Origin: an uncultured Methanosarcinales archaeon
Lineage (GTDB): Archaea > Nanobdellota > Nanobdellia > Woesearchaeales > JACPBV01
NCBI GenBank assembly: GCA_964577685.1
Contig: CAZNZT010000008.1
Location: 761 to 64,760 of the forward strand
Length of the DNA stretch: 64,000 nt
Direction of reading: 5' to 3'
Shown here in pieces: positions 17,307-53,228 of the stretch; positions within the stretch are counted from its first letter, which is position 1, and each line of letters opens with the position of its first letter. A program made the translations under genes and the position numbers. The notes beneath the pieces are model-generated. The model ran no database searches. It saw only the letters and a program-made list of their open reading frames with translations, and had not been told where the DNA came from.

Positions 17307-19483
17307 CCAATGAAGAAATTGTGAGGGGATTAATAGAAAAATATAAGAAAAGGCTGCAAGAAGAATTAGGTACAAAAATAGAAAAAAAACAGGAGAAGAT
17401 TAGTTCTAGGGAATATCAAGAATTCAAAAAAGCATATATGCCTGCCAAATTAACACTATATGAAAAACTATGTAACTTCAGTGAAAAGCTAGTAAAAATA
17501 ACACCAGAAAAAAATAAAGCAAACAAACTAAAAGAAGCAATAAACATATGCCACCTAAATATAACACCAACTGGTGCAACCTCATTTGCAATTGTGATAC
17601 CATTTTTTATCATCTTATTTTCTTCACTTATTTCAATAATCTTTCTAGGTTCAATTTTTTTCCCATTTTTCTTTATTATCTTAGGAATATCAATAATAAA
17701 ACCACTAGGAAACATACCAATATTTCTTGCTAACAACTGGCGTTTAAAGGCATCAAACCAAATGGTTCTATGTATATTCTACGTGGTAACCTACATGAGA
17801 CACACATCCAATTTAGAATTAGCAATTCGTTTTGCTTCAGAGCACATAGCACCTCCATTAAGTCTAGACCTCAAAAAAGTCCTATGGGATGTTCAAACAC
17901 AAAGATATTCTACAATAAAAGACTCGTTAGAAGCATATCTGCAAACATGGAAAAACTGGAACAATGAATTCATAGAGTCATTTCATCTTATAGGGGCGTC
18001 ATTGTTGGAGGGAAATGAAGAAAAAAGATTAGCTACCCTAGATAAGTCATTAGATGTTATATTAAGTGAAACTTATGAAAAAATGCTACATTACGCTCAA
18101 AATCTGAAATCACCTATTACTATGTTACACATGTTAGGAATAATATTACCAATTCTAGGCCTGGTAATACTACCTTTAGTCGTAAGCTTTCTCTCAGAAG
18201 TAAGATGGTATTATATAGCCCTTTTGTATAACATAGCACTACCAATAACAGTTTATTATCTAGGAAAAACAATACTAACAAAAAGGCCATCTGGGTATGG
18301 AAACACGGATATTAGTGAGTACCCTCAATTCAGAAAATACAAAAACATTATAATAAGAATAGGAAAATCAGAGATAAGAATAAATCCATTGGTAATAAGT
18401 GGAATAGTATTTTCCTTACTCTTTATTATAGGTATATCACCAATAATACTTCATTTATTTATTGAAGACGAAACAAATATTGGGCTTGGAGAAATAGATG
18501 AGTCCTCTACCTGCCTAAGAGAATACTGCCTATTAGACTACAGAGAAATAAACGGGGAAACAAAAGGGCCCTTCGGTCTTGGTTCTTCCATACTTAGCTT
18601 ATTTGTCACGCTTGCCTTTGGAGTTGGTTTTGGCACTTATTTCAGACTTATCTCAAAAAACTTGCTACAAATAAGAAAAAAAACAGAAACCCTTGAACAA
18701 GAGTTTGCTTCTGGACTTTTTCAATTAGGAAATAGACTTAGTGATGGATTGCCTGCAGAAACCGTGTTTGAAAAAGTAGCAACAAGTATGAAAGGAACAA
18801 TTTCTGGAGATTTCTTTAGTCTAGTCAGTAGAAATATAAAAAAAATTGGTATGGGTGTTCCAGAAGCAATATTTCATCCAAAATATGGAGCCTTGGTATA
18901 TTTCCCCTCAAACCTAATAGAAAGCTCAATGAAGGTACTAATTGAATCAATAAAAAAAGGACCAAAGATAGCTGCAATTGCATTAATAAACATTTCAAGA
19001 TACGTAAGAGAGATGCACAAAGTAAATGAAAGATTACGAGACCTGATGGCAGATGTCATATCCTCAATGACATCCCAAATAAAATTTCTGACTCCTACTA
19101 TAGCAGGAATAGTAATAGGTATTACATCAATGGTAACAAGTATTTTAGGTAAACTCTCAATACAAATGAAGCAATTTAGTGCTCTGCAGACAGAGGGAAT
19201 AAGCAGCAGTAGTATGCTAGTAGGGCAGCTAGTCAGTGAAGGGGTCCCAACCTATTACTTTCAGATAGTAGTTGGTATTTATGTCATACAGATTACATAT
19301 ATACTAACTGTATTAGCAAACGGGATTCAAAATGGCACTGATAAACTCAACGAAAGATACATGCTAGGTAAAAACCTAACAAGATCTGCTCTACTATATT
19401 GCGTAATAGCTGCTATTATAATGCTAATATTCAATTTTATAGCAACAGCGATAGTCGGAGTCGGTACTATGGAGATAACTTAA
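17303..19483 (+). CDS. Polytopic membrane protein, FlaJ/TadC/GspF-like platform partner of the secretion ATPase
   Basis: Start overlaps the stop of the FlaI-like gene (ATGA). 726 aa with many TM helices and two cytoplasmic domains, the usual organisation of FlaJ/TadC. Confidence 0.7.
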   Translation: MTNEEIVRGLIEKYKKRLQEELGTKIEKKQEKISSREYQEFKKAYMPAKLTLYEKLCNFSEKLVKITPEKNKANKLKEAINICHLNITPTGATSFAIVIPFFIILFSSLISIIFLGSIFFPFFFIILGISIIKPLGNIPIFLANNWRLKASNQMVLCIFYVVTYMRHTSNLELAIRFASEHIAPPLSLDLKKVLWDVQTQRYSTIKDSLEAYLQTWKNWNNEFIESFHLIGASLLEGNEEKRLATLDKSLDVILSETYEKMLHYAQNLKSPITMLHMLGIILPILGLVILPLVVSFLSEVRWYYIALLYNIALPITVYYLGKTILTKRPSGYGNTDISEYPQFRKYKNIIIRIGKSEIRINPLVISGIVFSLLFIIGISPIILHLFIEDETNIGLGEIDESSTCLREYCLLDYREINGETKGPFGLGSSILSLFVTLAFGVGFGTYFRLISKNLLQIRKKTETLEQEFASGLFQLGNRLSDGLPAETVFEKVATSMKGTISGDFFSLVSRNIKKIGMGVPEAIFHPKYGALVYFPSNLIESSMKVLIESIKKGPKIAAIALINISRYVREMHKVNERLRDLMADVISSMTSQIKFLTPTIAGIVIGITSMVTSILGKLSIQMKQFSALQTEGISSSSMLVGQLVSEGVPTYYFQIVVGIYVIQITYILTVLANGIQNGTDKLNERYMLGKNLTRSALLYCVIAAIIMLIFNFIATAIVGVGTMEIT

Positions 19484-23311: not shown

Positions 23312-23653
23312 ATGGGAAGAGGTAGACCTCCAAAAAGCCAAATAAGACAGAATATTATTGAGATTTTATACTTCCTAAGAGAAGGATATGGATACAACAT
23401 TCATAGAATATACAACAAAATATTCCCTTCTGTCACGATGAGGGTGATATATTACCACCTCAAAAAAGGGTTAAACTTAGGTGAATTTAAAATAAAAAAA
23501 ATAGAAAAAGAAAAGGGGAACTTCTCATGGGGTTCTGAAGCTGAAAAAATTTATTATACGCTTGGAAAAGAAGCTAGACCAACCGGAAACCTAAGAGTTA
23601 AAGAGTTCCTTGAAAAAAATAAACCAGATCATCTTTCTTTTAACAAATTATAA
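23312..23653 (+). CDS. Winged helix-turn-helix DNA-binding protein (putative transcriptional regulator)
   Basis: 'IIEILYFLREGYGYNIHRIYNKIF...RVIYYHLKKGLNLGEF' fits a wHTH recognition helix plus wing. Convergent with, and 25 nt overlapping, the large Cys-rich gene. Confidence 0.45.
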   Translation: MGRGRPPKSQIRQNIIEILYFLREGYGYNIHRIYNKIFPSVTMRVIYYHLKKGLNLGEFKIKKIEKEKGNFSWGSEAEKIYYTLGKEARPTGNLRVKEFLEKNKPDHLSFNKL

Positions 23654-26600
23654 ACAAAAGAATGTTTATTTTCATTTCTTCTAATATAAGTAGTATCCTT
23701 ACATTCAATATTTATGCTTAAATCAGTAAAATTTAAAGGGATAGTTGTATTACAATAAAAAGCACCTATATCGAACTTATCAGACCCTTCACACTGACTA
23801 AATGAACCTTGCATCTTTTCAAAATGTTCTTTATCGCTTGAAAACCTACACTGCATATCATCATCAATATACATTATAAGAGTAACATTGCTAGTATTAT
23901 AATTCACAGCATAATTTGAATTCAATAAATCTCCATCGGCAGCAATAATATTTGGTGGTGTCAAATTGAAATACCTATGAAAAAGCTCCCTATTCCTACT
24001 AATACCCATATTAACTGACTTATTCATACTAAATGAAGTAGAATTGACCAAATATAACTTATATTTCCTCCTTTTGGGGGGATTATCTTTACACTTAAAA
24101 TACAACTTAAGATTATTACCAGAAAATGGAATTTCACCAGTACACTCATAGCTGCCTCCTAAAACAGGGCTTATCTTATAAGATGAAATTGGACATTCCA
24201 ATAGTCCTTGCATATAGGCATAATCCACATCATAATTACTATACCTACACTCTGATGGTTTATTTACATACAATTTAAGACTAACTTGCTTTGTATTCTT
24301 AGGTAAAATAGAATTATTCTCTGGAACTATTTTTAAAATAAGGGGTGGCTCTATATTAGCTGCCGTCCTATTAATGGTAAATTTTATAAAAAAATCCTCA
24401 GTATTCTCATTCCCTGCCATATCTTTGCACCTTACAAAAAAATAATAAGTATTTTGTTCAAAAGCAGAAAGTAAAATCCTAGACAACTCCTTGATATAAG
24501 GAAATAAATGAGAATATTTATTTACAATATTCATAACTATTGCAAAAAAGAAGTCAGCTGTGCTTAGTATGTCATTTCCTGTGAAATACTCGTATAAATC
24601 TAATTCATCCTCCAATGATGCCCTATAACTTCTATATGCAGCTTGCAAATCATCTATTATTCCGATTAAATCTACAATAGCTGTGATATTCAAATAATAG
24701 TACACCCTCTCTGGTATAACCAGACCTGCAGGCAACCTTATAGTCATATTATGAGTCAAACTAAATGTTGGCTTATCAAACCAAACAGATGGCAAAAACC
24801 GGTAGCTTATATTAGGTAAATAAGCCAACTTACATTTAGCTGGCTCGTTAGTTTTTATTCCAAATTTAAATGGCGCATATGGTTTAATGGCTGGTTCAAT
24901 CTCATAACCATCAATTGACTTATCTAGAATCTTCAACCTAGCCCTATAAGCCCTATACCCTGGGCTTAAGGCATCTGTATTAAAATCTATTTCTGGTTCT
25001 TCTTTGTCATCAGTATTAAATGGAAAACACCTACCAACACCATCAACCAGCTCAAACCTACAAAGCTGTCCTAAACTTTTACATTTATATTCCGTACATG
25101 GCTCCAAAGGATCCTCATCACATAAATAACAATCCTCACCCCCATAGGGGGCACTCCACAATGAACAAAAAGAATAGTCTAAGACCTTTATCTCGGGTGG
25201 TTCTTTAAAAGGATTAATAAAATCTGATATAGATAAATCTGAAATATAATCAAGATAATTAAAAGCAGCACTTAAAAGATAAGGTAATCTCTCCATGACC
25301 ATAGGAAATTCCACTTTTTTACTATCCCTCTTCCTCTTGTACAAATCAAGATGAAGTGGACTCCTACCTATTTCTGCTGGATTTTTATTTAATCCGTCTT
25401 GATGATAAACATAGTCTCTTACTGAATCGGTTGGATCAGAATTAAAAAAGCCTTCCTTTGTTAGTCTGTCTGCAATATTTCTATAATTACCACAATCCCC
25501 CTGAAAATAACAATACAATGCTGAATGGTCAACCCAGACATTAGGACAACTGAAATCATCACATAATGCATAATTTGTTGCTATATTACAAACCTCTTCT
25601 CCATTCCCTTCCCAAAATCTAAACCCTGGCGGAACCTTTGGGTAGCACCTAGATACATCACTATAGTCTATACCAGGGAGTGGTCTAAAAAGAAAATCTG
25701 ACCACTTACAATCTCTCACACTTGAATTTTCACAACATTCCCTTGTCTTACATAACCAGCAATCTTGCCACCTATTCGGTCTACACATGGCTTTACTTAA
25801 TCCATTTATATTCTTCTCCGTACATAATTCCTCTCTGAAATCTCTACATTCCTCAACATATTCCTTTCCATTAATGCACATATGTCTATAGTGTCTACCA
25901 CCAACATAATCCATCCCCCCATGCCCCCTCTTTGATTCCACTATACTATCATAAGCACACCATGACTCTCCATGTCTCCTTGGAGGGCCAGTAAACGACT
26001 TTGTCTCATGTTCATAAGTAGCTACACAATCCTTACAACCTCCATCTCCACATTCTCTATCGCCATAATCTAAACCGATTGCTGGACAGATACATTCTGT
26101 ATTAGGATTATAAGTCCCTCCTTTCTTCTCACACTCTTCTTTTGGTGCGTTCTTAAAACAAAATCCATCATAACTATTAAAACAACAACCATAAACCAGA
26201 CGAGTTTGCTCCAAATTGGGCAATAAGCTAACTGTATCCTCTCCCTGTAAAGCAAACAAAAATGAATAATTCTCTCTACCAATTATAGTTAATTTATAAA
26301 CTATGTCCGGGTAAGGCCTGTGTTTCTCAATCAATATATGGGCTCCATGTTTCATCATAAAATCATTCTGATCAAAAAATCCAAACTCTATTTCACTATT
26401 TACAATCTCGTTAGCAAGAGCATACAATTTTCCTAGAGGAATATCTATATTAGAACTAAACATACTTTGTTTTATCGTTGAACCAGCTTTCTTTAGTGTT
26501 ATAGGATAATCCAAGATTACTCTTACTTCTTCAACACCAATTCTGACCGTTACATTTAAAGTGCCAGTGTCTACTTTATAACCCTTTTCTCTGAAGACAT

Positions 26601-27000
26601 CAAGATTTATACAGCTCTCAAGCCCTTGCTTTATTCTATTCTGAAGCTCTTTTTCCATTTCTTGCCTTAAAAAAATAGCATTAACACAACCATGAGTATG
26701 TTGATTATAACAGAAGTACCTATATTTTTCATTGTAATACCAAACAAAATCTTTTTCTGATAAATTAAGAGTCCCTCCTTGTTCCATTAGAAGTTTAATA
26801 ATAGGATAGCTAACAATATCGATACAACTGATAACATATCTATCCAATGGCTTTTTCTCAAATCTCTTCTCATTTACTAACTCCGAATCCACCTTTACTC
26901 TTTCCAAAGAAACATTCCTGATATAATTAAGAGAAAAGAAAAATACCAACAATAGAACACCAACCAAAACAAAATAGCTTACCTGACCTCTTTTTTTCAT
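23629..27000 (-). CDS. Large (1123 aa) cysteine-rich, N-glycosylation-sequon-rich secreted/surface protein with an N-terminal signal anchor. Function unknown.
   Basis: N-terminus 'MKKRGQVSYFVLVGVLLLVFFFSL' is hydrophobic. The central ~350 aa is extremely Cys-rich (e.g. 'CICPAIGLDYGDRECGDGGCKDC', 'CWLCKTRECCENSSVRDC'). Many N-x-S/T sequons. No catalytic motif seen. Confidence 0.6.
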   Translation of the reverse strand: MKKRGQVSYFVLVGVLLLVFFFSLNYIRNVSLERVKVDSELVNEKRFEKKPLDRYVISCIDIVSYPIIKLLMEQGGTLNLSEKDFVWYYNEKYRYFCYNQHTHGCVNAIFLRQEMEKELQNRIKQGLESCINLDVFREKGYKVDTGTLNVTVRIGVEEVRVILDYPITLKKAGSTIKQSMFSSNIDIPLGKLYALANEIVNSEIEFGFFDQNDFMMKHGAHILIEKHRPYPDIVYKLTIIGRENYSFLFALQGEDTVSLLPNLEQTRLVYGCCFNSYDGFCFKNAPKEECEKKGGTYNPNTECICPAIGLDYGDRECGDGGCKDCVATYEHETKSFTGPPRRHGESWCAYDSIVESKRGHGGMDYVGGRHYRHMCINGKEYVEECRDFREELCTEKNINGLSKAMCRPNRWQDCWLCKTRECCENSSVRDCKWSDFLFRPLPGIDYSDVSRCYPKVPPGFRFWEGNGEEVCNIATNYALCDDFSCPNVWVDHSALYCYFQGDCGNYRNIADRLTKEGFFNSDPTDSVRDYVYHQDGLNKNPAEIGRSPLHLDLYKRKRDSKKVEFPMVMERLPYLLSAAFNYLDYISDLSISDFINPFKEPPEIKVLDYSFCSLWSAPYGGEDCYLCDEDPLEPCTEYKCKSLGQLCRFELVDGVGRCFPFNTDDKEEPEIDFNTDALSPGYRAYRARLKILDKSIDGYEIEPAIKPYAPFKFGIKTNEPAKCKLAYLPNISYRFLPSVWFDKPTFSLTHNMTIRLPAGLVIPERVYYYLNITAIVDLIGIIDDLQAAYRSYRASLEDELDLYEYFTGNDILSTADFFFAIVMNIVNKYSHLFPYIKELSRILLSAFEQNTYYFFVRCKDMAGNENTEDFFIKFTINRTAANIEPPLILKIVPENNSILPKNTKQVSLKLYVNKPSECRYSNYDVDYAYMQGLLECPISSYKISPVLGGSYECTGEIPFSGNNLKLYFKCKDNPPKRRKYKLYLVNSTSFSMNKSVNMGISRNRELFHRYFNLTPPNIIAADGDLLNSNYAVNYNTSNVTLIMYIDDDMQCRFSSDKEHFEKMQGSFSQCEGSDKFDIGAFYCNTTIPLNFTDLSINIECKDTTYIRRNENKHSFVYNLLKER

Positions 27001-32420: not shown

Positions 32421-32491
32421 TCTCAAAACTTTAAATCACAAAATTTTTATAGGAGTTTAAATAAAAAGTTCAATAAAAGAGGAATCTGACT

Positions 32492-32785
32492 ATGAAATAT
32501 ATAGAAGGCATTTTAAAAATAGCAAATCTATTTCTAGCGTTAGTTGCAGGGACTATAGCTATTAATCTTTTTAAAATTTTAAGTAGAAAGAAGGGTAAAA
32601 AGGAAATTATAGTATGGAAGCTCCTTGCTGTTGCTTTGATCTTTTTTGCTATGCAAATGGTTTTTGGAGCCCTAAGAGCATTTAGAATATTTGAAAGTCC
32701 TTATATAACCCATATTATACCCACAGTTATACTTACATTAATTATTATAGCTATTGTTTTTCAGATAAACATACACAAAAATTAA
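32492..32785 (+). CDS. Small 3-TM membrane protein (paralog of the next gene)
   Basis: 97 aa. Shares its architecture and the central 'KK..I..WKLLAVALIFFA' block with the 32787 ORF ('KPWKILFLAILVYIV'). Translationally coupled to it (1-nt gap). Confidence 0.4.
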   Translation: MKYIEGILKIANLFLALVAGTIAINLFKILSRKKGKKEIIVWKLLAVALIFFAMQMVFGALRAFRIFESPYITHIIPTVILTLIIIAIVFQINIHKN

Positions 32786-32786
32786 A

Positions 32787-33086
32787 ATGTCAAGCATAGG
32801 ATATTGTCTAGGTATTGTAGCACCTTATTATAATCTAGCACTCGTGATAATTGTCACTATTTTATTTCTGAGGCTGTTTAGCTTATCAAACAAAGGAGTG
32901 TATATAAAACCATGGAAAATATTATTCCTAGCAATCCTAGTATATATAGTAGAAGAAATAATAAACATTATGGAAACAGCAAATCTGATTACAGTATCAA
33001 GTCTTTTATTTCCTTTTCTTGAGATGATAATAATTAGTTTATTTATATATATGCTTCTCTTACAGAAAGAGCATACAAAAAAATGA
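32787..33086 (+). CDS. Small 3-TM membrane protein (paralog of the preceding gene)
   Basis: 99 aa, tandem duplicate. Its stop overlaps the start of the pilin-like gene. Confidence 0.4.
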   Translation: MSSIGYCLGIVAPYYNLALVIIVTILFLRLFSLSNKGVYIKPWKILFLAILVYIVEEIINIMETANLITVSSLLFPFLEMIIISLFIYMLLLQKEHTKK

Positions 33087-33337
33087 ATAAAAAAGCATTG
33101 TCTCCTCTAGTAGCAACGATACTATTAGTCTTATTTTCCCTAATAATAGGCACAATAACAATGAACTGGGGAAAAAGCTATGTTGAAAAAATAGAAGAAG
33201 AACCAAAAATAAGAGAAAGTGCCATAATCATAAGCATTAAAGACATTGATACACCGCTGAAGGAATTGCAAATTCAATATATAACAGGGAAAATAACAAA
33301 AGAAGAATATCTAAAAAAAGAAAAAGAGCTAATCTAA
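33083..33337 (+). CDS. Archaeal type IV pilin-like protein (class III signal peptide) fused to a C-terminal SHOCT-like motif
   Basis: N-terminus 'MNKKALSPLVATILLVLFSLIIG' matches the archaeal prepilin pattern (KK-[GA]-x-SP-[VIL]-[VI]-ATxLL, cleavage after the K/A). C-terminus 'ITGKITKEEYLKKEKELI' resembles SHOCT. Confidence 0.5.
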   Translation: MNKKALSPLVATILLVLFSLIIGTITMNWGKSYVEKIEEEPKIRESAIIISIKDIDTPLKELQIQYITGKITKEEYLKKEKELI

Positions 33338-33588
33338 TGATTAATTTTTTCTAAGATTGAAACAACATGCCATATTTGAGTCCTTATATAGGGCTCAAGA
33401 TTATTATCATCGGAAATTTCCTCAAACTCGCTCAAAACCTTATTTACCTTTATTGGTAATTCTATATCACTTTTTAGTATAGAAACAGCTTCCTGTATTT
33501 TGTTTCTAATATTTTTCGGAAGACTACTCTCTTTATTTAACTCCTCTAGTATTACTACAGCTTCTTCAATAGACTTACCTAGATCCAT
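33334..33588 (-). CDS. UPF0147-family archaeal protein
   Basis: 'SLPKNIRNKIQEAVSIL....LEPYIRTQIWHVVSILE' matches the remembered conserved UPF0147 pattern (LP.N.R..A.EA...L......P..RT.IW). Confidence 0.55.
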   Translation of the reverse strand: MDLGKSIEEAVVILEELNKESSLPKNIRNKIQEAVSILKSDIELPIKVNKVLSEFEEISDDNNLEPYIRTQIWHVVSILEKINH

Positions 33589-38418: not shown

Positions 38419-39840
38419 CTAATTAGAAGAGTATCTCAAATCCGGATTTCTAGCAGCTCTAACAGCATCTAATCTACCAACTGGCATACTAAACGGAGCA
38501 TTATGTAATAGTTCTGGTTTATTCTCAGCCTCAGCCCTAATCTTCCCCATTACCCTGATAAAATAATCCAATGTTTCTTTGCTTTCAGTTTCAGTAGGTT
38601 CTATCATCATGGCTCCATGAACAATTAGCGGAAAATATATTGTCATAGGATGTATTCCATAATCAATCAATCTTTTGGCTATATCTGTGGTAGTAACACC
38701 ATTAGGTAAAGCTTCATCACTTAAGACAAATTCATGTTTACATAAGGAATTATAAGGAAGCACATAAACGTCCTTTAATTTCTCTTTTAGGTAGTTTGCA
38801 TTCAAAACAGCATTTTCTGCAACTTTTCTTAAACCATCCGAACCAACAGCCCTAATATAAGAATAGGCTTTCACCGTAACACCAAAATTACCATAAAAAG
38901 ACTTTACCTTCCCAATTGATTTGGGGTTATTAATAAGATTATATTTGCCTTCTTTAAATATAATCCTCGGATTAGGTAAAAATCTTTCTAAGGTCTTTAC
39001 AACACCTACTGGCCCAGAACCAGGACCCCCACCACCATGTGGAGTTGAAAAGGTTTTATGGAGATTTAGGTGGATAATATCTATTCCCATATCTGCTGGT
39101 TTCGTTACACCTAGAAGAGCATTCATATTTGCTCCATCCATATAAACTAGACTTCCATTTTTGTGCATAATCTTTGTTATTTCTAATATATGCTCTTCAA
39201 ATATACCCAAGGTGTTTGGTATTGTTAACATTATAGCTGCAACATCTTTGTTGATAATCTTTTTCAATTCATCCAAGTCAATTTGTCCTTTATCGTTACT
39301 TTTTAAGGTCATATTCCTAAAACCACACATAGTAGAAGATGCAGGATTTGTCCCATGAGAGCTATCTGGTGTGATTATTATTTTCCTGTCTTCCCCTTTT
39401 TCATTAAAATATGCTTTTATAATCATGAGTCCTGTTAATTCGCCATGTGCTCCTGCAGCAGGTTGTAAAGTGAAAGCGTCCATCCCAGTAATCTCACATA
39501 ACATATTCTCGAGTTCATACATCAATCGCAAACAACCCTGCGCATTCGGCTGTAATGGATGACACTCAACGAAGCCCTCTAATTTAGCAATATCTTCATT
39601 TATCTTAGGGTTATACTTCATAGTGCAAGAACCAAGTGGATAGAAACCATTATCAACCCCAAAATTTCTTCTTGACAACTCTATATAATGCCTTATCAAT
39701 GTTACCTCATCAACCTCTGGTAATTCTAATTCATCTCTTAAATTATCTTTACTTATTATACCATCTCTTTTAGGAACATCCAACTCTGGTAAAGAAACTC
39801 CTATCCTACCTGCTCTGCTTTTTTCAAATATCAATTGCAT
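38419..39840 (-). CDS. gcvPB: Glycine dehydrogenase (decarboxylating) subunit 2
   Basis: PLP-lysine region 'IIHLNLHKTFSTPHGGGGPG'. 473 aa. Confidence 0.9.
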   Translation of the reverse strand: MQLIFEKSRAGRIGVSLPELDVPKRDGIISKDNLRDELELPEVDEVTLIRHYIELSRRNFGVDNGFYPLGSCTMKYNPKINEDIAKLEGFVECHPLQPNAQGCLRLMYELENMLCEITGMDAFTLQPAAGAHGELTGLMIIKAYFNEKGEDRKIIITPDSSHGTNPASSTMCGFRNMTLKSNDKGQIDLDELKKIINKDVAAIMLTIPNTLGIFEEHILEITKIMHKNGSLVYMDGANMNALLGVTKPADMGIDIIHLNLHKTFSTPHGGGGPGSGPVGVVKTLERFLPNPRIIFKEGKYNLINNPKSIGKVKSFYGNFGVTVKAYSYIRAVGSDGLRKVAENAVLNANYLKEKLKDVYVLPYNSLCKHEFVLSDEALPNGVTTTDIAKRLIDYGIHPMTIYFPLIVHGAMMIEPTETESKETLDYFIRVMGKIRAEAENKPELLHNAPFSMPVGRLDAVRAARNPDLRYSSN

Positions 39841-41159
39841 TTTCTTATTATTTCAACAAGCCTGTCCATCTCCTCTTTTGTATTTAACTCGGTAACACAA
39901 AACAACAAACAATTATTTAGCTCTGGATAATAAACACCAATATCTAATCCCCCAAGTATACCACTATCCAAGAGCTTTTTACTAACAGTTTTAGCATCTT
40001 TTACCTTCACTAAAAACTCATTGTAAAATTCTTGTTCAAAAACTATACTACAACCTATTTCCTCCAATCTATCAGCCAAATAATGTGCCTTATATAAACA
40101 CAACTCAGCAAGTTTTCTTAACCCATTTTTTCCAAGAGCAGAAAGATAAACAGTAGCAGCCAAAGCACATAATGCCTCATTACTACATATATTTGAAGAG
40201 GCTCTCTCTCTTCTTATATGCTGTTCCCTAGCCTGTAAGGTCAGTATATATCCAATATTACCGTTTCCATCTGTTGTCTTACCAACTAACCTTCCAGGAA
40301 GCTGTCTTAGATATCTATGTTTTGTAGCCATAATACCCAAATATGGTCCTCCAAAGCTAACTGGATTACCAAGGCTTTGTCCTTCACCAACCACAATATC
40401 AGAATGCTCTCCAGGAGGTTTTAATATACCCAAAGAAGTTGGTTCAATAACACATACATTTAACAAACTTCCATTCCTATGTAGAATATCAGAGATTCCT
40501 CTAAGATTTTCTACACAACCAAAAAAATTAGGTTGCTGTAATAAAAGGGTGGCTGTCCTTTTGTTTATCTTTAATTTTAAATCATCTATAGAAGTTACTC
40601 CATCAGAATAATCCACTTCTACAAATTTAAGGTTATGTGCCCAACAGTAAGTTTTTACAACCTGTCTATAGTCTGGATGTATGGCTCTAGACACAAGTAT
40701 TTCATTTCTCTTTGTAATATTTGAAGCCATTATACAGCTCTCAGCCAAGGCTGTTGCACCGTCATATAATGAAGCATTTGAGACATCCATACCAAATAAA
40801 TTACATATCATTGTTTGATACTCGTATATAGCTTGCAATATCCCCTGAGACATCTCAGGCTGATATGGGGTGTAAGTAGTATAAAATTCACTTCTAGCTA
40901 CAATATGCTTCACAACAGAAGGGATAAAATGTTTATATGCACCAGCTCCAATAAAGTAAGAGAAATCTACTTTATTCATCTTACTTATCCCCTTCAACAA
41001 TTCAAATAATCCGACCTCAGACATAGAAGCTGGAATCTTTAGTTTATCCTTTAAAATAATCCTATCAGGTATATCCCTAAATAACTCGGATATGCTCTTT
41101 AATCCAATTTCTTTGAGCATTGCTTCTCTATCCTTATTAGTATTAGGAATAAAATCCAT
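39831..41159 (-). CDS. gcvPA: Glycine dehydrogenase (decarboxylating) subunit 1
   Basis: 'YTPYQPEMSQGILQAIYEYQTMICNLFGMDVSNASLYDGATA', typical of the GcvPA N-terminus. Overlaps gcvPB by 10 nt. Confidence 0.9.
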   Translation of the reverse strand: MDFIPNTNKDREAMLKEIGLKSISELFRDIPDRIILKDKLKIPASMSEVGLFELLKGISKMNKVDFSYFIGAGAYKHFIPSVVKHIVARSEFYTTYTPYQPEMSQGILQAIYEYQTMICNLFGMDVSNASLYDGATALAESCIMASNITKRNEILVSRAIHPDYRQVVKTYCWAHNLKFVEVDYSDGVTSIDDLKLKINKRTATLLLQQPNFFGCVENLRGISDILHRNGSLLNVCVIEPTSLGILKPPGEHSDIVVGEGQSLGNPVSFGGPYLGIMATKHRYLRQLPGRLVGKTTDGNGNIGYILTLQAREQHIRRERASSNICSNEALCALAATVYLSALGKNGLRKLAELCLYKAHYLADRLEEIGCSIVFEQEFYNEFLVKVKDAKTVSKKLLDSGILGGLDIGVYYPELNNCLLFCVTELNTKEEMDRLVEIIRKCN

Positions 41160-41172
41160 ATTACACCCAAGG

Positions 41173-41574
41173 TTATTTGTGCTCCTTTAAGAAATTTTCA
41201 TATTCTTCAGCACTCATTAGTCTTTCTATCTCTTCCTTATTCTCAATCTTTAACTTCACAATCCATCCTTTCCCGTATGGATCCTGATTGATAATTTCTG
41301 GCTTTTCTCCAAGTTCATTATTCACTTCTAAAACCTCTCCACTAACTGGAGAAAAAACATCTGAAACAGATTTTACACTTTCAATTGTAGCTATTTGTTT
41401 GCCCTGCTCTACTCTCTTACCTTTTTCTGGCAACTCAACAAACACAATATCTGTAAGTTGTTTCTGAGCAAAATCAGTTATGCCTACTATTCCTATATCC
41501 TGTTCTATCCTAATCCACTCATGCTCTTTTGTATACTTCAATTCTCTTGGATTTTCCATATTACCACCCCACAC
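41173..41574 (-). CDS. gcvH: Glycine cleavage system H protein
   Basis: Lipoyl-lysine block 'IATIESVKSVSDVFSPVSGEV'. Confidence 0.9.
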   Translation of the reverse strand: MWGGNMENPRELKYTKEHEWIRIEQDIGIVGITDFAQKQLTDIVFVELPEKGKRVEQGKQIATIESVKSVSDVFSPVSGEVLEVNNELGEKPEIINQDPYGKGWIVKLKIENKEEIERLMSAEEYENFLKEHK

Positions 41575-41589
41575 AAAACCACTCAGTTA

Positions 41590-42702
41590 TTATTTATTAA
41601 GTTTTCCTTTATACTTATAAAACGGTCTTTCAACAATCTTAGCTTTATGCAGTTCTCCCCTTATTTTAATCTCAATCAAACTCCCAACATCAGCTTCAGC
41701 AATATCAAGGATAGCTAAACCAATTGGTTTTTTAAAAGTAGGGGAAAACGTTCCTGAGGTGACTAATCCTATCTTTCTATTATTCTTAAAGACATCATAG
41801 TTAAATCTGGGAATGGCTTTGTCTAAAAGCTCAAACGGAACAACAATCCTTTTTAGATCCCTCTTGGCTTCCAAAAGTGCTTCCTTACCTATAAAATCCT
41901 TAGAAAAATCAACAACAAACCCTATTCCTGCTTCAAAAGGATTTATATTTTCATTAAGCTCATGCCCGTAGAGACTATAACAAGCCTCTATTCTTAATGT
42001 ATCTCTTGCTCCAAGGCCAACAGGTTTTAATCCTAAATCTTTTCCACACTTTAGAAGCCTATTCCACACATCAATGGCTCTCCCTGAGTTAAAATATATC
42101 TCAAACCCATCCTCAGCTGTATAGCCTGTTCTTGATATCACAAAATTTTCATTGAAAAAAAATTTTTCAATAAAATCAAATCTCTTCAACAAAGAAAAAT
42201 CAAAATCAAAACTATCATTGATTATCTGTTCAGAAAAAGGTCCTTGTAAATCTATCTTCGCTATGTTATTGCTTATATTAATAATAGTAACATCATCAAA
42301 AAAATCCTTATTCTTCATAAGCCAACCAAAGTCCTTGTCAACATTACTCGCGTTTACAACCAGCATAAATTTTTTATCATTAAATTTATAAACAAATAAA
42401 TCATCAATAACACCACCCATCGGATTGCATAAACAACAATAAAAAGACTTATTACAATCAAACTTACTTATGTCTCTTGTTACCATTTTTTGCAAAAAAT
42501 CATGAGCTCTCTCACCTTCAACAAGAATCTCACCCATATGGGAAACATCAAAGAGTCCTGCTTTATTTCTTGTTGTATTATGTTCTTCAATAATACTCGT
42601 ATAAGAAACAGGCATTAGCCATCCACCGAACTCTATAATTCTTGCTCCAAGTTTTAAATGTAAGTCGTACAGTGGTGTTTTCTTTAAATCAGGCATAAAC
42701 AA
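41590..42702 (-). CDS. gcvT: Aminomethyltransferase (glycine cleavage system T protein)
   Basis: 'KKTPLYDLHLKLGARIIEFGGWLMPVSY' N-terminus and GcvT folate-binding domain. Confidence 0.9.
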   Translation of the reverse strand: MFMPDLKKTPLYDLHLKLGARIIEFGGWLMPVSYTSIIEEHNTTRNKAGLFDVSHMGEILVEGERAHDFLQKMVTRDISKFDCNKSFYCCLCNPMGGVIDDLFVYKFNDKKFMLVVNASNVDKDFGWLMKNKDFFDDVTIINISNNIAKIDLQGPFSEQIINDSFDFDFSLLKRFDFIEKFFFNENFVISRTGYTAEDGFEIYFNSGRAIDVWNRLLKCGKDLGLKPVGLGARDTLRIEACYSLYGHELNENINPFEAGIGFVVDFSKDFIGKEALLEAKRDLKRIVVPFELLDKAIPRFNYDVFKNNRKIGLVTSGTFSPTFKKPIGLAILDIAEADVGSLIEIKIRGELHKAKIVERPFYKYKGKLNK

Positions 42703-44121: not shown

Positions 44122-44901
44122 CTAAAAAGAAGCTCTATTTTTTTTATAAAAAACAAAAAAAGAAATAGAAAAAACAAAGATACTAACAATCTGTGATGCT
44201 GTCAAAAAACCAAACAGATACCAATTATACGACCTAAAAAACTCTATCGCAAACCTTGTAGCAGAGTAATACATTAAAACAAATAATGTCAAAAAACCAT
44301 CGTATCTCTTTTTTTTGTCCAACCACCTTAATATAAAAAATAAAACAAGTAAATTAGCTATAATATATAATCTAGCAGGATGAAGTGGCTCAGTGATAAT
44401 CTTGGTGTTAGAATATCTAACAATAGCCCATGGTAGGTTTGTTGGTTTGCCTCTACAACTATCATTCGATACAAAACAACCTAGCCGAGCAATAGACAAT
44501 ATAATAGGAAAATATAAAGCAAAAACATCAGAATATTTCCAAAAATTTATTTTTTTGAACTTACAATAAGAATAAATAGAAAGTACAGCACCCAAAAGCC
44601 CACCATAAAGAACAAGACCAGAACGCCAAAACATAAAGAACTTAATTATCCTCTGAAAAAATGTATAGCTTCTATTCCATGTCCAAGGACCAAAATAATA
44701 AAAAAGCCTTGCACCAGCTATGATACCAACTATTGAAAATAAAATAAGATAAAACATATCTCTCTTGTTAAGTTTTCTCTTTTTCGCTTCATGAAATACA
44801 AGAAAAATCCCTACTAGAGTAGCAAGATAAGCAAATGTTCTATACACCTCTATCCTAAAAAAAATAAAATCAAATCTTTTTAATTGTGGAAAATAGAACA
44901 T
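44122..44901 (-). CDS. lgt: Prolipoprotein diacylglyceryl transferase (bacterial-type Lgt)
   Basis: Lgt blocks: 'GARLFYYFGP' (G.R.GY..), 'FWRSGLVLYGGLLGAV' (W.GG...HGGLIG), signature 'ARLGCFVSNDSCRGKPTNLPWAI' (GR.G(N/C)F.N.E..G.PT.LPW), and C-terminal 'HPARLYIIANLLVLFFILRWL...GFLTLFVLMYYSATRFAIEFFR', which aligns closely with E. coli Lgt '[22 protein letters not shown]...GLFLIGYGAFRIIVEFFR'. Confidence 0.8.
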   Translation of the reverse strand: MFYFPQLKRFDFIFFRIEVYRTFAYLATLVGIFLVFHEAKKRKLNKRDMFYLILFSIVGIIAGARLFYYFGPWTWNRSYTFFQRIIKFFMFWRSGLVLYGGLLGAVLSIYSYCKFKKINFWKYSDVFALYFPIILSIARLGCFVSNDSCRGKPTNLPWAIVRYSNTKIITEPLHPARLYIIANLLVLFFILRWLDKKKRYDGFLTLFVLMYYSATRFAIEFFRSYNWYLFGFLTASQIVSIFVFSISFFVFYKKNRASF

Positions 44902-44902
44902 C

Positions 44903-45124
44903 TTAGGATTCTACTTCACTTTCATCTGTAATATTGTCTTCCTCATCATCATCATTGCAAGAATCACAACTATCACAGTCATCACAGCTATCACAGTCAT
45001 CACAGCTATCACAACCTTCACAGCCACTTAAAGTAGTTGTTATAAAGAATAAAGAGATATACAATAATATAAATACCAAAGCACACAATTTCTTGTAATC
45101 TATTTTATCTGGTTTAGCACCCAT
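44903..45124 (-). CDS. 73-aa putative lipoprotein: signal peptide plus lipobox (L-S-G-C), then a Cys/Asp repeat (CDSCDDCDSCDDCDSCDSC) and an acidic tail
   Basis: 'KKLCALVFILLYISLFFITTTLSGCEGCDSCDDCDSCDDCDSCDSCNDDDEEDNITDESEVES'. Ends 1 nt before the lgt start on the same strand. Cys-x-x-Cys repeats suggest metal binding. Confidence 0.55.
   Translation of the reverse strand: MGAKPDKIDYKKLCALVFILLYISLFFITTTLSGCEGCDSCDDCDSCDDCDSCDSCNDDDEEDNITDESEVES
44958..45020. repeat. Tandem roughly 12-nt repeats (GTCATCACAGCT-like) that encode the CDSCDD repeats of the mini-lipoprotein
   Basis: 'tatcacagtcatcacagctatcacagtcatcacagctatcaca' is directly visible. Confidence 0.5.
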
Positions 45125-46087: not shown

Positions 46088-47734
46088 TTATTTGCCATAA
46101 CAATTTTTACCTTTGAACTTTTGCCTATACGCTTCCAATAAAGGAGTAAGATTTCTTCTTGGTGGTTTTGACTCATTTAGCCTCTTCTTTATTTCCTCTT
46201 CGCTTAGTCTTACATCCAATTTTCTATTAGGTATATCAATATCTATTATATCATTGTCTCTTATTGCTGCTATTGGGCCATTGTTATACGCCTCCATCTC
46301 AACATGACCTATACATGGTCCTGAAGTCCCTCCAGAAAATCTTCCATCTGTAATCAAAGCAACCCTCTTGTAGCCAGCACCTTTTATGGCATCTGTTGGT
46401 GTTAACATCTCTGGCATTCCAGGTGCTCCAGCAGGTCCTTGATAAGGTAAAACAACAACATCCCCTTCGTTTATATCTTTTGATTCTATTGCCTCCAACA
46501 GTTCTTCTTCAGTATAAAAAACCTTTGCTGGCCCAGAATGTTTCATCATACTTGGATCAACTGCTGTTTGTTTAATAATAGCACTATTAGCAAGATTCCC
46601 CTTCAAAACAGCTATCCCTCCTTCTTTCATATATGGATTATCTAAACCCCTTATTATCTCTCCATCAAGAACTTTTCCTTCTTCTGCTATTTGTTTTATT
46701 GACTTCAAATTAACAGTAACAGAATCTTTTAATAAGCTCTTTAATCTATTCAATACAGCAGGTATTCCACCAGCTTTGTCTAAATCAGCTATTTCATATG
46801 GCCCTGCGGGAATTATCTTGCAGATATTAGGTGTTTCTCTTGATATTTTATCAAAAATTTCAACATCAATCTCAATCCCTGCTTCTCTTGCTATAGCAGG
46901 TATGTGCAATACTGTATTTGTAGAACCACCCATTGCCATATCCACCCTTATTGCATTTTCGAAGGCATTTTTAGTCATTATATCTCTTGGCTTAATATCC
47001 TTCTTAACCAACTCAACTATCCTCCTCCCGGTTTCATATGCCTGTTTCTTCTTTAGCGGATTTAAAGCTGGAGTAGTAGCACATCTTGTTAGTGACATTC
47101 CAAGTACCTCAGTAACAACAGCCATAGTATTAGCTGTATATAATCCAACACAAGAACCAGCACCACAACACATCAAAGATAACATACCCTCAGCTTCCTC
47201 TGCCTTGAGTTTACCAGCCTTAACCTCACCAACTAAACCAAAACCCTCAATCGGATGATGTTTCTTCCCCTCCACTACATTCGCTTTCATTGGCCCACCA
47301 GTAAGTATAATAGCTGGTAAATTTAATCTTCCAGCGGCCATTAACATTCCAGGTGTTATTTTATCACAATTTGTTACACCAACCCATCCATCAAGAGAAT
47401 GGGATAAAGTCATGATTTCAATATTATCAGCTATGTGTTCTCTAGAAGGCAAACTCAAACGCATTTCTACATGCATAGCGATACCATCACATACCCCAGG
47501 AACCCCCCATACAAAGGGAATACCGCCAGCATCCCTAATCCCATTCATTACCTCTTCAGTCAATTCATTTAGGTGTATGTGTCCTGGTATAATATTATTA
47601 TAGCTGTTGGCTACTCCTATAAAAGGCTTATCAGATTCCAAATCATCTTTTTTTACACCTGCAGAAAGCAATAACGCCCGATGGGGTAGTGTTTCTATTC
47701 TTTTCTTTAAAACATCTGATCGCATATTAATCAC
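46088..47734 (-). CDS. ilvD: Dihydroxy-acid dehydratase
   Basis: 'CDKITPGMLMAAGRLNLPAIILTGGPM', 'TDGRFSGGTSGPCIGHVEMEA' (IlvD/EDD signatures). Confidence 0.9.
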   Translation of the reverse strand: MINMRSDVLKKRIETLPHRALLLSAGVKKDDLESDKPFIGVANSYNNIIPGHIHLNELTEEVMNGIRDAGGIPFVWGVPGVCDGIAMHVEMRLSLPSREHIADNIEIMTLSHSLDGWVGVTNCDKITPGMLMAAGRLNLPAIILTGGPMKANVVEGKKHHPIEGFGLVGEVKAGKLKAEEAEGMLSLMCCGAGSCVGLYTANTMAVVTEVLGMSLTRCATTPALNPLKKKQAYETGRRIVELVKKDIKPRDIMTKNAFENAIRVDMAMGGSTNTVLHIPAIAREAGIEIDVEIFDKISRETPNICKIIPAGPYEIADLDKAGGIPAVLNRLKSLLKDSVTVNLKSIKQIAEEGKVLDGEIIRGLDNPYMKEGGIAVLKGNLANSAIIKQTAVDPSMMKHSGPAKVFYTEEELLEAIESKDINEGDVVVLPYQGPAGAPGMPEMLTPTDAIKGAGYKRVALITDGRFSGGTSGPCIGHVEMEAYNNGPIAAIRDNDIIDIDIPNRKLDVRLSEEEIKKRLNESKPPRRNLTPLLEAYRQKFKGKNCYGK

Positions 47735-47761
47735 CTTAATCTAATTTTTTATTAATATTAT

Positions 47762-48385
47762 TTATTTAACATAATTCTTTAGGGTCCCTATCCCCTCAAT
47801 TTTAATCTCTATTGTATCTCCTTTCTGCATTGGACCAATACCTGCAGGAGTTCCTGTAGAAATAATATCACCAGGCAATAAAGTCATTACCCTTGATATA
47901 AAAGATACCAACTCCTCAACCTTAAATATAAAATTTGAAGTACTAGAATCTTGTTTTAACTCTCCATTAAGAAAACTTTGAATTTTAAGATTATTGGGAT
48001 TTACATCCTTAACAACAGTTGGGCCAACCGGACAGAATGTATCAAAAGACTTTGCCCTTGTCCACTGTCCATCTTTTTTTTGTAAATCTCTCGCTGTTAC
48101 ATCATTTATACAGGTAAAGCCATCAATATGTTCCATAACCTCTCCTTCCCCGATATCTTTTATCCTATCTTTTATTATAACTCCAAGCTCTGCTTCATAA
48201 TCAACCCTTCTAGACATTTCTGGGTAGATTATATTTTCCTCCGGGCCTATCAGTGTTGTAGGTGGTTTAATAAATAATATTGGCTCTTCCGGCAAAGGCA
48301 TCCCTAATTCTTCAGCATGATCCCTATAATTCAAACCAACCAAAACTATCTTAGAAGGTTTATTTTTTAAAAAAGAAATATTCAT
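47762..48385 (-). CDS. Fumarylacetoacetate hydrolase (FAH) family protein
   Basis: '[17 protein letters not shown]', '[12 protein letters not shown]', '[14 protein letters not shown]' (FAH-fold metal and substrate motifs). Confidence 0.8.
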
Positions 48386-48390
48386 TTTAG

Positions 48391-49398
48391 TTATCTTTTT
48401 TTAAAGAGGTTTCTTATTTCTTCGCCGGTTATCTCAATTTGATGTTTTCCAATTTTTTCTCTGCTTTCCTTTAAAAAAGGCATTCCTTTTTTGTATTCTT
48501 CAACCCACTCCTTAGCAAATTCTCCACTCTCTATTTTCCTTAACGCCTCCTTCATCCTCTCTTTAACATCTTCCCCTATAATCCTATGTCCGACAGCCCA
48601 CATTCCATACTCTGCTGTATTGCTAATAACCTCTGCCATTCTTTTAATTCCTCCTTCCCATATAAGATCCACAATAAGTTTCATTTCATGCACGCACTCA
48701 AAGTACGCCATCTCTGGAGGATAACCAGCTTCTACCAAAACCTCAAAACCATTTTTCATTAATTCAACTAGACCTCCACATAAAACACACTGTTCACCAA
48801 ATAAATCCTCATATGTTTCCTGCTCAAAGGTACACTCCAGAACGCCTGCTTTTGTAAAATGCATAGCCTTAGCCAATGCTAAAGCCATTTCTCTCGCTTT
48901 TCCAGAAGCATTTTGGTAAACTGCAACTAGTGCTGGAACACCAAAACCTTCAAGATAGGCTTTTCTTTCTTCTGTTCCTGGAGCTTTTGGTGCAACCATG
49001 ATAACATCCACATCACTCGGAGGTATTATTCTCTTAAAACAAATATTAAAACCATGGGAAAAATAAAGCGTCTTTCCTGCTTTTACATAAGGCTTGATTT
49101 GATTTTCATAAATATCTGGTTGAACTTCATCCGGCAAAAGGATTTGGATAATATCAGCTTTTTCTGCGGCCTTGTCTATTGAAAATACCTCAAACCCATC
49201 TTCCTTTGCTTTATTCCAACTAGGATTTTGTTTCCCACCTATAACCTCCGTTTCTCCAATTATTACACTAACCCCAGAATCTCTAAGCATATTTGCTTGG
49301 GCAGACCCCTGTGCTCCGTAACCAATAGTTGCAACCACTTTACCCTTTAAAATACCTTCATCTATATCTTCATCATACAATACTTTCATAACAACCAA
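48391..49398 (-). CDS. ilvC: Ketol-acid reductoisomerase
   Basis: NADPH Rossmann '[21 protein letters not shown]'. '[39 protein letters not shown]'. Confidence 0.9.
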
Positions 49399-49601
49399 CC
49401 CCCTAGACTATTTGATTTTTTATTAAAAATTTTCTATTAGAGGTAATCATACTCCATTTATAAATATTGCTCTTACTTAAATCTCTCAAGGACATCTTCA
49501 CCCGCCATTCCTTTCCTAACACCTAGCTCTTTTGCTCCTGTTGGCTTTTGTTGAAACACCACAAAAACAAATCCCCCTAACAATCACTTTTTCTACTTTT
49601 A

Positions 49602-50729
49602 TCATTTTAATTTTTTTATTATAGCATCCCCCATTTCAGAAGTCTTCGCTGTCCCACCAAGGTCTTTTGTTTTCACTTTCCCTTCTTTTAAAACTTCTTC
49701 TATTGCTCTAATTACCTGCTTAGCTGATTCCTCCTCTCCAAGTTCTTCTAACATCATAGAACCAGCCCAAATTGTTGCTATTGGATTTGCTATACCTTTT
49801 CCCTTATATTTTGGAGCAGAACCATGTATTGGCTCAAACATTGAAATACCATCTGGGTTAATATTTCCTCCAGGAGCAAGTCCTAATCCACCCTGAATCA
49901 TAGCACCGAGGTCTGTTATTATGTCCCCGAACATATTTGGAGTCACAATCGTTTGAAACCATTCTGGATTTTTAACAAACCACATAGTTATAGCATCAAC
50001 AAAATTAAACTCATAATTTATCCCGGGATAATCCCTAGCAACTTCTTCTAAAATCTCACGCCAAAAAGAATAAACATAATCTAAAACATTTGCCTTATCA
50101 ACAGATGTAAGTTTATCCCTCTTCTTCCTCTTTGTTAATTCAAAAGCATATTTTATAACCCTCTTTGCTCCTTCTCTACTTATAACCCCAATCTGATATG
50201 CTATCTCTGAACCCTGTGTATCTATATCCAATCCAAATTTTATTTTATAAAGACTCCTTACTATTTCAAGTTCTTGTTTCGATTTTCCTATTTTGGCTCT
50301 ATTTCCAATACCGACATAAAAGTCTTCTGTATTCTCTCTAACTACATCAAAGTTTATATCAGTAGGCCCTTTATCTCTCAACGGAGTTTTAACCCCCCCT
50401 AATAGCCTCACAGGCCTTAGATTAATAAATTGATCAAAATAAAATCTCATCTTAAGTAAAATCCCCTTCTCTAGAATTCCTGGCTTAACCCTAGGATCGC
50501 CCAAAGCACCTAAGTAAATAGCATTACATTTCTGTTCAATCTCTTTTAGGGTTTCTTCCGTTATAAGTTCTCCTGTCTTTAAATATTTCTCTGCCCCATT
50601 ATCATATTCCCTCCATTCAATATCAAAACCATTAAGATCAGCTACTCTTTCTATTACCTTAACTCCTTCTGCTATTATCTCTGGACCTATACCATCCCCC
50701 GGAATTAAAGCAATTCTATATTTTTTCAT
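49602..50729 (-). CDS. leuB: 3-isopropylmalate dehydrogenase (isocitrate/isopropylmalate DH family)
   Basis: '[15 protein letters not shown]', 'NLRPVRLL', '[26 protein letters not shown]'. Operon context with leuCD. Confidence 0.8.
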
Positions 50730-52469: not shown

Positions 52470-52471
52470 TT

Positions 52472-52744
52472 TTAACCAAACTTATAATATTTTTTTACGG
52501 GCTTATTAATTTTCCATTTACATTTTAAGCCTCTAGGGAAAACAACTAAATCTCCTTTTCCAAACTTCACATGCTCGCCATCCTCTGTTATTACTTCAAC
52601 ATCTCCCTCAATTAGTAAACAAGTTTCCTTCTCATCGTACTCCCACGGAAACTCTGAAATCCCTTTCTCCCATATACCCCATGATTTTGCTTCTTCTTTT
52701 TCTTTTTCAGTTGGTTTTCTTACTTCTATCCTCACCAAAATCAC
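52472..52744 (-). CDS. Small cupin-fold protein embedded in the leu/ilv operon
   Basis: 90 aa. '[31 protein letters not shown]' is a cupin beta-barrel motif pair. Translationally coupled on both sides. Confidence 0.5.
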
Positions 52745-53226: not shown

Positions 53227-53228
53227 TT

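Follow-up and report, generated by a model that had tools for sequence, protein, structure and literature searches.

Two three-helix membrane proteins and a pilin-signal protein with a SHOCT-like tail form a conserved gene module in Woesearchaeota-type archaea

Introduction

Why would two small membrane proteins be encoded together with a protein that resembles a pilin at one end and a SHOCT-domain protein at the other? The question is raised by three consecutive open reading frames, here called ORF1, ORF2 and ORF3, in a stretch of 64,000 nucleotides (nt) from contig CAZNZT010000008.1 (assembly GCA_964577685.1), which is labelled as an uncultured Methanosarcinales archaeon and assigned to the Woesearchaeales in the GTDB lineage; this whole stretch is referred to as the window. 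An initial annotation, made from the letters of the window alone, suggested a small surface-appendage or membrane-anchoring module. Based on the analyses described below, we propose, with a probability of roughly 0.4, that the three products form a small membrane complex specific to a DPANN lineage (Woesearchaeota/Nanoarchaeia-type), in which a parallel pair of proteins with three transmembrane (TM) helices would hold a subunit bearing a pilin signal.

Results

The three genes are kept together in relatives

The three ORFs are packed exactly as the initial annotation had described them, with the same coordinates (Table 1), a gap of 1 nt between ORF1 and ORF2 and an overlap of 4 nt (ATGA) between ORF2 and ORF3. 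Homologs of ORF3 (n = 125; 79-133 amino acids (aa); 53-85% identity) were found in metagenome-assembled genomes (MAGs) of Nanoarchaeota, and the ORF1 profile matched 371 proteins of about 95 aa, none of which has a Pfam domain. An exhaustive search of 1.84 billion cluster representatives with the hidden Markov model of ORF1 returned 64 matches at E ≤ 1e-3; with only these 64 representatives, the ORF1 family is narrow.

Scanning one genome per species yielded 14 loci from Nanoarchaeota, Nanoarchaeia or Woesearchaeota MAGs, a few of them labelled 'uncultured Methanosarcinales', probably by mistake, and the order ORF1-ORF2-ORF3 is found in all 14. A metagenome scan, in which gene presence was judged by tblastn and motif checks, added 65 loci. 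All three genes are present in about 60 of the 61 loci with enough downstream sequence, usually with the 4-nt overlap between ORF2 and ORF3. The three-gene arrangement, on whose conservation the initial annotation had made its proposal depend, is thus kept in relatives. Most related loci have a block of UPF0147, PfdB, RpoP and L37ae genes on the 3' side of the module, and the module is equally intact where both flanks differ, its neighbours there being housekeeping genes throughout (FtsY, Spt5, methylases, an alpha/beta hydrolase and an SLT-domain protein). Within the window, no extra copies of the three genes were found.

In comparisons with three closer relatives, nonsynonymous differences (pN) amount to 0.10-0.27 per site and synonymous differences (pS) are saturated at 0.70-0.90. 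Strong purifying selection acts on each of the three genes, and ORF3 has the lowest pN among them. Chance or spurious ORFs are ruled out by the conservation of homologs together with the pN/pS values: the genes are real. Median identities to relatives were taken over 14 independent genome-derived loci (L005-L018; n = 5-14 by gene; L001 and L003 stand in for their duplicates L010 and L008) and were 64% for ORF3, 55% for ORF1 and 54% for ORF2, compared with 61% for the neighbouring L37ae, 67% for prefoldin beta, 51% for UPF0147 and 74% for aRF1. ORF3 therefore evolves at about the rate of the ribosomal and chaperone genes beside it, L37ae in particular, as a housekeeping gene does.

ORF3 has a pilin-type N-terminus

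ORF3 is a small single-pass protein with an N-terminus of pilin type and, at its other end, a SHOCT-like hairpin; it begins with MNKKALSPLVATILLV and finishes with ITGKITKEEYLKKEKELI. It has a short charged leader, [KR][GAS] at positions -2/-1 and, inside roughly the first 35 residues, a hydrophobic stretch of about 20, as class III signals do, and cleavage by a prepilin peptidase is predicted after Ala5. TIGR02537 matches 27 of 28 ORF3 family members at E ≤ 1 (best E 1.3e-6), the ORF3 of the window scoring 17.8 bits against a cut-off of 20, and matches were also obtained with the profile of the UpsA N-terminus (23 of 28 members) and with PF07790 (1 of 28). In the type IV pilin 8FK7 of Pyrobaculum calidifontis (8fk7_A), the N-terminal 52 residues are matched by the profile of the ORF3 family (E 1.3e-3). 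Some ORF3 homologs carry the name 'archaellin/type IV pilin N-terminal domain-containing protein' or 'flagellin-like', and for two homologs the NCBI name refers to the pilin N-terminal domain. The motif [KR][GAS]xSPxxAT occurs in 111 of 120 homologs, the rest being mostly truncated gene calls, and [KR][GA]LSPL[VI]AT is nearly invariant in the family alignment. These profile matches and the motif bear out the class III signal that the initial annotation had read in ORF3.

ORF3 thus shares with archaeal type IV pilins and archaellins (TIGR02537, PF07790; 8FK7, Sulfolobus UpsA) a short leader with basic residues, a cleavage motif of the form [KR][GA] and a hydrophobic helix that opens with SP(L/V)(I/V)AT and is about 22 residues long; the N-terminal 17-52 residues are covered by the profile matches. 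Unlike these proteins, it has a mature part of about 79 aa that is all-helical and devoid of a β-rich or Ig-like head, lies next to no assembly genes in the loci checked, evolves at a housekeeping rate and is always coupled to two 3-TM proteins.

The ORF3 tail is SHOCT-like

In the AlphaFold2 (AF2) model of ORF3 (predicted local distance difference test (pLDDT), 81), a helix at residues 8-38 is followed by a flexible, low-confidence linker (39-57) and two short helices (58-67 and 73-83); the model contains no β strands and hence no β-rich pilin head. A Foldseek search of the PDB with this model gave nothing meaningful (best E 2.3).

Pfam SHOCT (PF09851) does not match the ORF3 of the window at E ≤ 1, and weakly matches 7 of the 28 family members, the best reaching 24.2 bits with a gathering threshold of 27 bits. 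We also compared profiles, taking as the SHOCT set true PF09851 proteins, a family from Patescibacteria in which SHOCT is joined to a single TM helix. Aligned by hhalign, the ORF3 tail profile and the PF09851 SHOCT segment match over 28 columns (probability 79.5%, E 1.5e-5), pairing PLKELQIQYITGKITKEEYLKKEKELI with ALDILKERYAKGEINKEEFEKMKKDLV at a score of 25.3, compared with at most 11.7 for shuffles. The tail motif is present in 98 of 120 ORF3 homologs. SHOCT domains have been described as C-terminal units of about 30 residues and two helices with a conserved Gly and Glu (PMC3581485), and G70, E74/E75, Y76 and L59/L62/I67 of ORF3 fit this pattern. The profile-profile match and the published features justify the term 'SHOCT-like', though not formal Pfam membership. 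The ending that the initial annotation had described as SHOCT-like hence deserves that name: it scores below the Pfam threshold, but is backed by the profile alignment and by the helix-turn-helix of the AF2 model.

The SHOCT domain and the ORF3 tail are both C-terminal units of about 28 residues whose two helices follow the pattern L..L...Y..G.I..EE[YF]...K.L, and in size and layout (TM helix, linker, hairpin) ORF3 resembles the bacterial TM-SHOCT mini-proteins of about 73 aa. It differs from SHOCT proteins in that every family member stays below the Pfam gathering threshold, and from the TM-SHOCT proteins in its pilin-type helix, from which the reverse orientation (tail outside) is predicted, and in a linker of about 20 residues and an invariant NWGKSYVE that are specific to the ORF3 family.

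The best-scoring Pfam family for the tail is GvpG (PF05120), with matches to 23 of 28 members (best E 9.3e-6), all below the cut-off of 30.6 bits (19.7 for the ORF3 of the window, 26.2 at most in the family). GvpG likewise has about 80 aa, a hydrophobic N-terminus and a C-terminal motif of the same type. However, ORF3 scores below the cut-off, its match is confined to the shared hairpin motif, and no gvp genes were found among the neighbours checked in the window and in related loci. A gas-vesicle function was discarded because the match is limited to this hairpin. Weak matches of ORF3 family members to CdvA and VbhA were taken as coiled-coil or compositional noise.

Tail variants of ORF3

In one subclade (L046, L050, L053, L056, L069 and L085), the tail of ORF3 is replaced by Y.C...TK.C..WEL[VI] with two conserved cysteines, and the N-terminal half is kept along with the membrane-proximal motif NWGKSYVEK. 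In L048 and L038, about 50 further residues extend the C-terminus beyond a SHOCT-like tail; this extension is Cys-rich in L048, the only one examined. A constant N-terminal half combined with differing tails implies that the tail is a replaceable module. The cysteines of the variants suggest that it lies outside the cytoplasm, where disulfides can form. As a separate observation, ORF2 and ORF3 are 147-344 nt apart in L048 and L038.

ORF1 and ORF2 are related three-helix membrane proteins

AF2 confidently models ORF1 as a bundle of three helices (pLDDT 88.8; predicted template modelling score 0.76), which occupy residues 2-33, 36-63 and 70-96. Invariant residues include E5, G6, K9, N12, W42 and Q55, the run G59-A-L-R62, F64, T73 and H74. 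ORF2 is likewise a three-helix membrane protein, with A12, P13, Y15, N16, P42, W43, E56, E79, the run F86-I-Y88 and Q93 among its invariant residues. Lysine plus arginine (K+R) counts for N-terminus, loop 1, loop 2 and C-terminus are 1.1, 4.9, 1.5 and 1.9 in ORF1 and 0.2, 4.7, 0.6 and 3.0 in ORF2. This bias places loop 1 and the C-terminus inside in both proteins, so that a shared N-out/C-in topology is predicted. A dual-topology pair was excluded, as the K+R counts give one orientation.

The initial annotation had called ORF1 and ORF2 clear tandem duplicates, which is too strong a term given a pairwise BLASTP E of 1.5. Aligned by hhalign, the two family profiles match over 84 columns at 18% identity (probability 97%, E 4e-11), with a score of 60.3 compared with at most 17.8 for column-shuffled and 9.3 for reversed controls. 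Both families have an Asn near the beginning of helix 1, open helix 2 with (P)W, carry Gln or Glu halfway along it and close helix 3 with Gln. Judged by these alignments, ORF1 and ORF2 are distant paralogs, detectable at the profile level only.

Scans of ORF1 and ORF2 with Pfam and NCBIfam found no family, nor did a Pfam scan of ten distant ORF1-like proteins. Foldseek comparison of the ORF1 model with the PDB gave no significant match (best E 0.46); the non-significant resemblances were to Vtc1, NINJ1, NdhE, MrpF and OST subunits. ORF1 shares a length of about 100 aa and three TM helices with Vtc1/DUF202, NuoK/NdhE, MrpF and OST4-like proteins, which act as subunits of larger complexes, and its model reaches a TM-score of about 0.6 to small three-helix subunits, a likeness of generic fold. 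In contrast to Vtc1/DUF202, NuoK and MrpF, ORF1 has neither a significant fold match (E ≥ 0.46) nor a Pfam match.

Some individual homologs of ORF1 are worth recording. At L084 (3977-4587), ORF1 is the most divergent one, with 39% identity. The 411-aa protein P0245 combines an alpha/beta-hydrolase domain with an ORF1-like C-terminus, either as a fusion or through a joint gene call, and in L073 (3028-3945) a hydrolase gene lies directly 5' of ORF1 on the same strand. The Patescibacteria contig L022 (3001-6402) encodes P0300, a very distant ORF1-like protein with a signal peptide and three TM helices, 2.5 kb 5' of a 73-aa TM-SHOCT gene and a P-type ATPase, amid membrane proteins of the thiol/disulfide type.

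Locus layout and genomic context

Table 1. Coordinates of the module, of segments of ORF3, of neighbouring features in the window and of ORF3 tail variants in related loci
Feature	Position	Strand	Size, family or basis
ORF1	32492-32785	+	97 aa
ORF2	32787-33086	+	99 aa
ORF3	33083-33337	+	84 aa
ORF3 residues 1-27, charged leader MNKKA, then hydrophobic helix LSPLVATILLVLFSLIIGTITM	33083-33163	+	
ORF3 residues 28-36, invariant membrane-proximal NWGKSYVEK (W29, G30, Y33, V34)	33164-33190	+	alignment
ORF3 residues 58-84, SHOCT-like/GvpG-like helix-turn-helix PLKELQIQYITGKITKEEYLKKEKELI	33254-33334	+	profiles, motif, AF2
AT-rich intergenic leader	32421-32491	+	71 nt; read directly from sequence
UPF0147, convergent neighbour, outside operon	33334-33588	-	PF03685 (Pfam), E 1.5e-18
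FlaI/TadA-like (T2SSE) secretion ATPase	15015-17306	+	763 aa; PF00437
ORF3 with Cys-pair tail, L046	2745-2990		
ORF3 with Cys-pair tail, L053	4569-4817		
ORF3 with Cys-pair tail, L056	1141-1380		
ORF3 with Cys-pair tail, L069	884-1132		
ORF3 with Cys-pair tail, L085	492-731		
ORF3 homolog with extended tail, L048	4929-5366		about 145 aa
ORF3 homolog with extended tail, L038	761-1195		about 145 aa

The AT-rich leader in front of ORF1, in a window of 33% G+C, contains TATA-like boxes (e.g. TTTTTATA at 32444-32451) and a GAGG at 32479-32482, 9 nt 5' of the ORF1 ATG, and is a putative promoter of a three-gene operon. Genes for a transglutaminase-like protein and a cation-diffusion-facilitator transporter lie 5' of the operon on the same strand, the latter directly preceding it. 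Because the gene upstream varies among relatives, the three genes form a unit of their own; a link of the module to the cation-efflux gene was dropped, as this neighbour is not conserved. On the 3' side, a convergent block starts with UPF0147 and continues with prefoldin beta, RpoP and L37ae; aRF1 comes after this block. The stop codons of ORF3 and UPF0147 overlap tail-to-tail by 4 nt (CTAA, 33334-33337), and the same overlap recurs in L001 (5264-5267) and L003 (2065-2068).

A FlaI-like ATPase gene is located 13 kb 5' of the operon and unlinked to it. Its end overlaps by 4 nt the start of a 726-aa, 8-TM ORF without family match (15015-19483 for both, + strand). The two are probably an ATPase/platform pair of a type IV filament with a very divergent platform, and the organism hence probably possesses type IV filament machinery. 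In related loci, the genes inspected right beside the module included no pilus ATPase, platform or peptidase. Elsewhere in the window, a 1123-aa ORF (23629-27000, - strand) starts with MKKRGQVSYFVLVGVLLLVFF, a class III-like signal on a very large protein, and gave no match in Pfam or NCBIfam.

Other features of the window were noted in passing. An Lgt homolog (prolipoprotein diacylglyceryl transferase; 44122-45124, - strand; PF01790, E 1.6e-46) occurs in this archaeal-looking genome, and a 73-aa ORF directly 5' of it contains the lipobox-like sequence LSGC and has a tail rich in Cys and Asp. The sole tRNA called by ARAGORN in the 64 kb (7811-7894, + strand; 84 nt) is a tRNA-Tyr with anticodon 'ata', an odd call that possibly reflects an intron or a mis-assignment. 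From N-terminal sequences only, and by eye, we take the regions 38419-42702 and 46088-56502 (- strand) to contain glycine-cleavage genes and a long ilv/leu cluster for the biosynthesis of branched-chain amino acids, which, if this impression is right, would be unusual for a reduced DPANN-type genome.

Discussion

In the small membrane complex that we propose, ORF1 and ORF2, ancient paralogs inserted in the same way, would most likely pair to give a pseudo-symmetric six-helix core. ORF3 would insert N-in/C-out by means of its class III signal, in agreement with the outside location suggested by the cysteines of its tail variants, would probably be trimmed after Ala5 by the cell's prepilin peptidase, and would stay in the membrane, docked to the ORF1/ORF2 core, rather than becoming part of a long filament. 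In each of the three proteins, the best-conserved segments would come to lie at the outer membrane face, namely the N-terminal helix and the GALRAF...LTH loop of ORF1, the N-terminal APYYN motif and Glu residues of ORF2, and MNWGKSYVE of ORF3. The flexible linker of ORF3 may present the small, exchangeable tail, in most cases the SHOCT-like hairpin, as an interaction or oligomerisation handle.

Several points weigh against this proposal. L084, the sole evaluable exception to the three-gene arrangement, contains ORF1 and ORF2 without a detectable ORF3. The physical association of the three proteins is something that we infer only, as we do signal cleavage, topology and purpose, and the roughly 55 ORF1/ORF2/ORF3 triples are too few for co-variation analysis. 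A search for the prepilin peptidase gene, as the initial annotation had advised, came up empty: neither an A24-type peptidase nor a GxGD membrane protease is encoded in the 64-kb window. Very short archaeal pilins have been reported, so that small size alone leaves a filament possible. With about 2.1 K+R in the four-residue N-flank of the ORF3 helix versus about 2.4 in the 15 residues after it, the positive-inside rule alone does not set the topology. Finally, SHOCT-like domains have been assigned mostly to the cell interior, with a predicted role at the inner membrane face (PMC11237479), and an external SHOCT-like tail would therefore be in an unusual location.

The presence of a class III N-terminus raises the question of whether ORF3 is a genuine mini-pilin that serves as a major or minor subunit of a type IV pilus-like filament, with the FlaI/TadA-type ATPase and platform encoded elsewhere and with ORF1 and ORF2 as dedicated membrane accessories, for instance a dock or chaperone for the prepilin pool. 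The T2SSE/FlaI-like ATPase and its overlapping 8-TM partner 13 kb upstream are in line with this idea, and tails that vary or are exchanged while the N-terminal helix stays constant are typical of pilins. Moreover, pilins that are all-helical or very short do exist, such as the bacterial Flp pilins and the short Methanococcus major pilin, and MMP1685 is small in size. In a census of archaeal pilus loci, which includes MMP1685 as the major pilin of M. maripaludis, typical pilins are β-rich or Ig-like and many class III genes stand alone (PMC4858521). We nevertheless consider a mini-pilin rather unlikely, since no pilus gene was found among the related-locus neighbours checked, ORF3 is as slow as L37ae and shows a lower pN than ORF1 and ORF2, it is present in single copy in the window and lacks a β-rich head, and its coupled polytopic partners are without counterpart in described archaeal pilus loci (PMC4858521). 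Slow evolution, the missing head, the single copy and the polytopic partners make a subunit retained in the membrane likelier than a filament subunit. Of the two possibilities raised by the initial annotation, the surface appendage thus loses ground (no pilin head, no pilus genes beside the module in the loci checked and slow evolution unlike that of exposed pilins), and membrane anchoring, or a membrane complex, fits better.

If, on the other hand, the pilin-like N-terminus were an uncleaved anchor and the tail cytoplasmic, as in the bacterial TM-SHOCT mini-proteins, the module could be an inward-facing membrane device, e.g. for ion or metal homeostasis or membrane stress. The size and layout shared with the bacterial proteins of about 73 aa, the predicted inner-face position of SHOCT-like domains (PMC11237479), the weak charge bias around the ORF3 helix, the cation-diffusion-facilitator gene directly preceding the operon in the window, and the distant ORF1-like Patescibacteria protein near a TM-SHOCT gene and a P-type ATPase all point in this direction. 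We still regard it as unlikely: the near-invariant [KR][GA]LSPL[VI]AT is hard to explain for a simple anchor, the Cys pairs and Cys-rich extensions suggest a location outside the cytoplasm, the transporter neighbour is conserved in no relative, and the Patescibacteria protein is very distant (E 2.7e-4). Highly improbable, in our view, is an ion-conducting or ion-driven device that uses membrane-embedded carboxylates of ORF2, similar to the 3-TM plus 1-TM stators (ExbB/ExbD, TolQ/TolR) or to 3-TM subunits of the NuoK/Mrp type. Such a device would account for the invariant E56 and E79 in the helices of ORF2 and Q55 and R62 in ORF1, for the layout of two 3-TM proteins with a single-pass N-in/C-out partner, and for the weak Foldseek resemblance of ORF1 to Vtc1, NdhE/NuoK and MrpF; however, none of these matches reaches significance (E ≥ 0.46) and the three-helix bundle is a generic fold, the sequences show no resemblance to stator, NuoK or Mrp families, and the ORF3 helix has no acidic residue.

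A bolder extension of the membrane complex, which we hold to be quite doubtful, is a near-universal Woesearchaeota-type surface machine, made of a pilin-like subunit and its dedicated 3-TM pair and independent of a canonical ATPase and platform, with the tail contacting the envelope or the host. It could be a minimal platform that holds or presents the pilin, or a stator-like ion-coupled device, and its tails would be of the SHOCT-like, Cys-pair or Cys-rich type.

The combination of a pilin-type N-terminus, a SHOCT-like tail and 3-TM partners appears neither in the SHOCT papers nor in the archaeal pilus census searched (PMC3581485, PMC11237479, PMC4858521), and our literature search found no paper linking SHOCT with archaeal pilins, in keeping with the view of the initial annotation that this is not a described pilin architecture. 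The module joins known kinds of part in an uncharacterised, strongly conserved unit. If the tail of ORF3 is truly external, it would reveal an unusual site for a SHOCT-like domain. The DPANN archaea are uncultivated and host-dependent and have very small genomes, and their conserved membrane proteins are mostly without assigned function. A module that is intact, ordered, strongly selected and slowly evolving across a broad clade of these organisms likely has a basic role at the membrane or cell surface.

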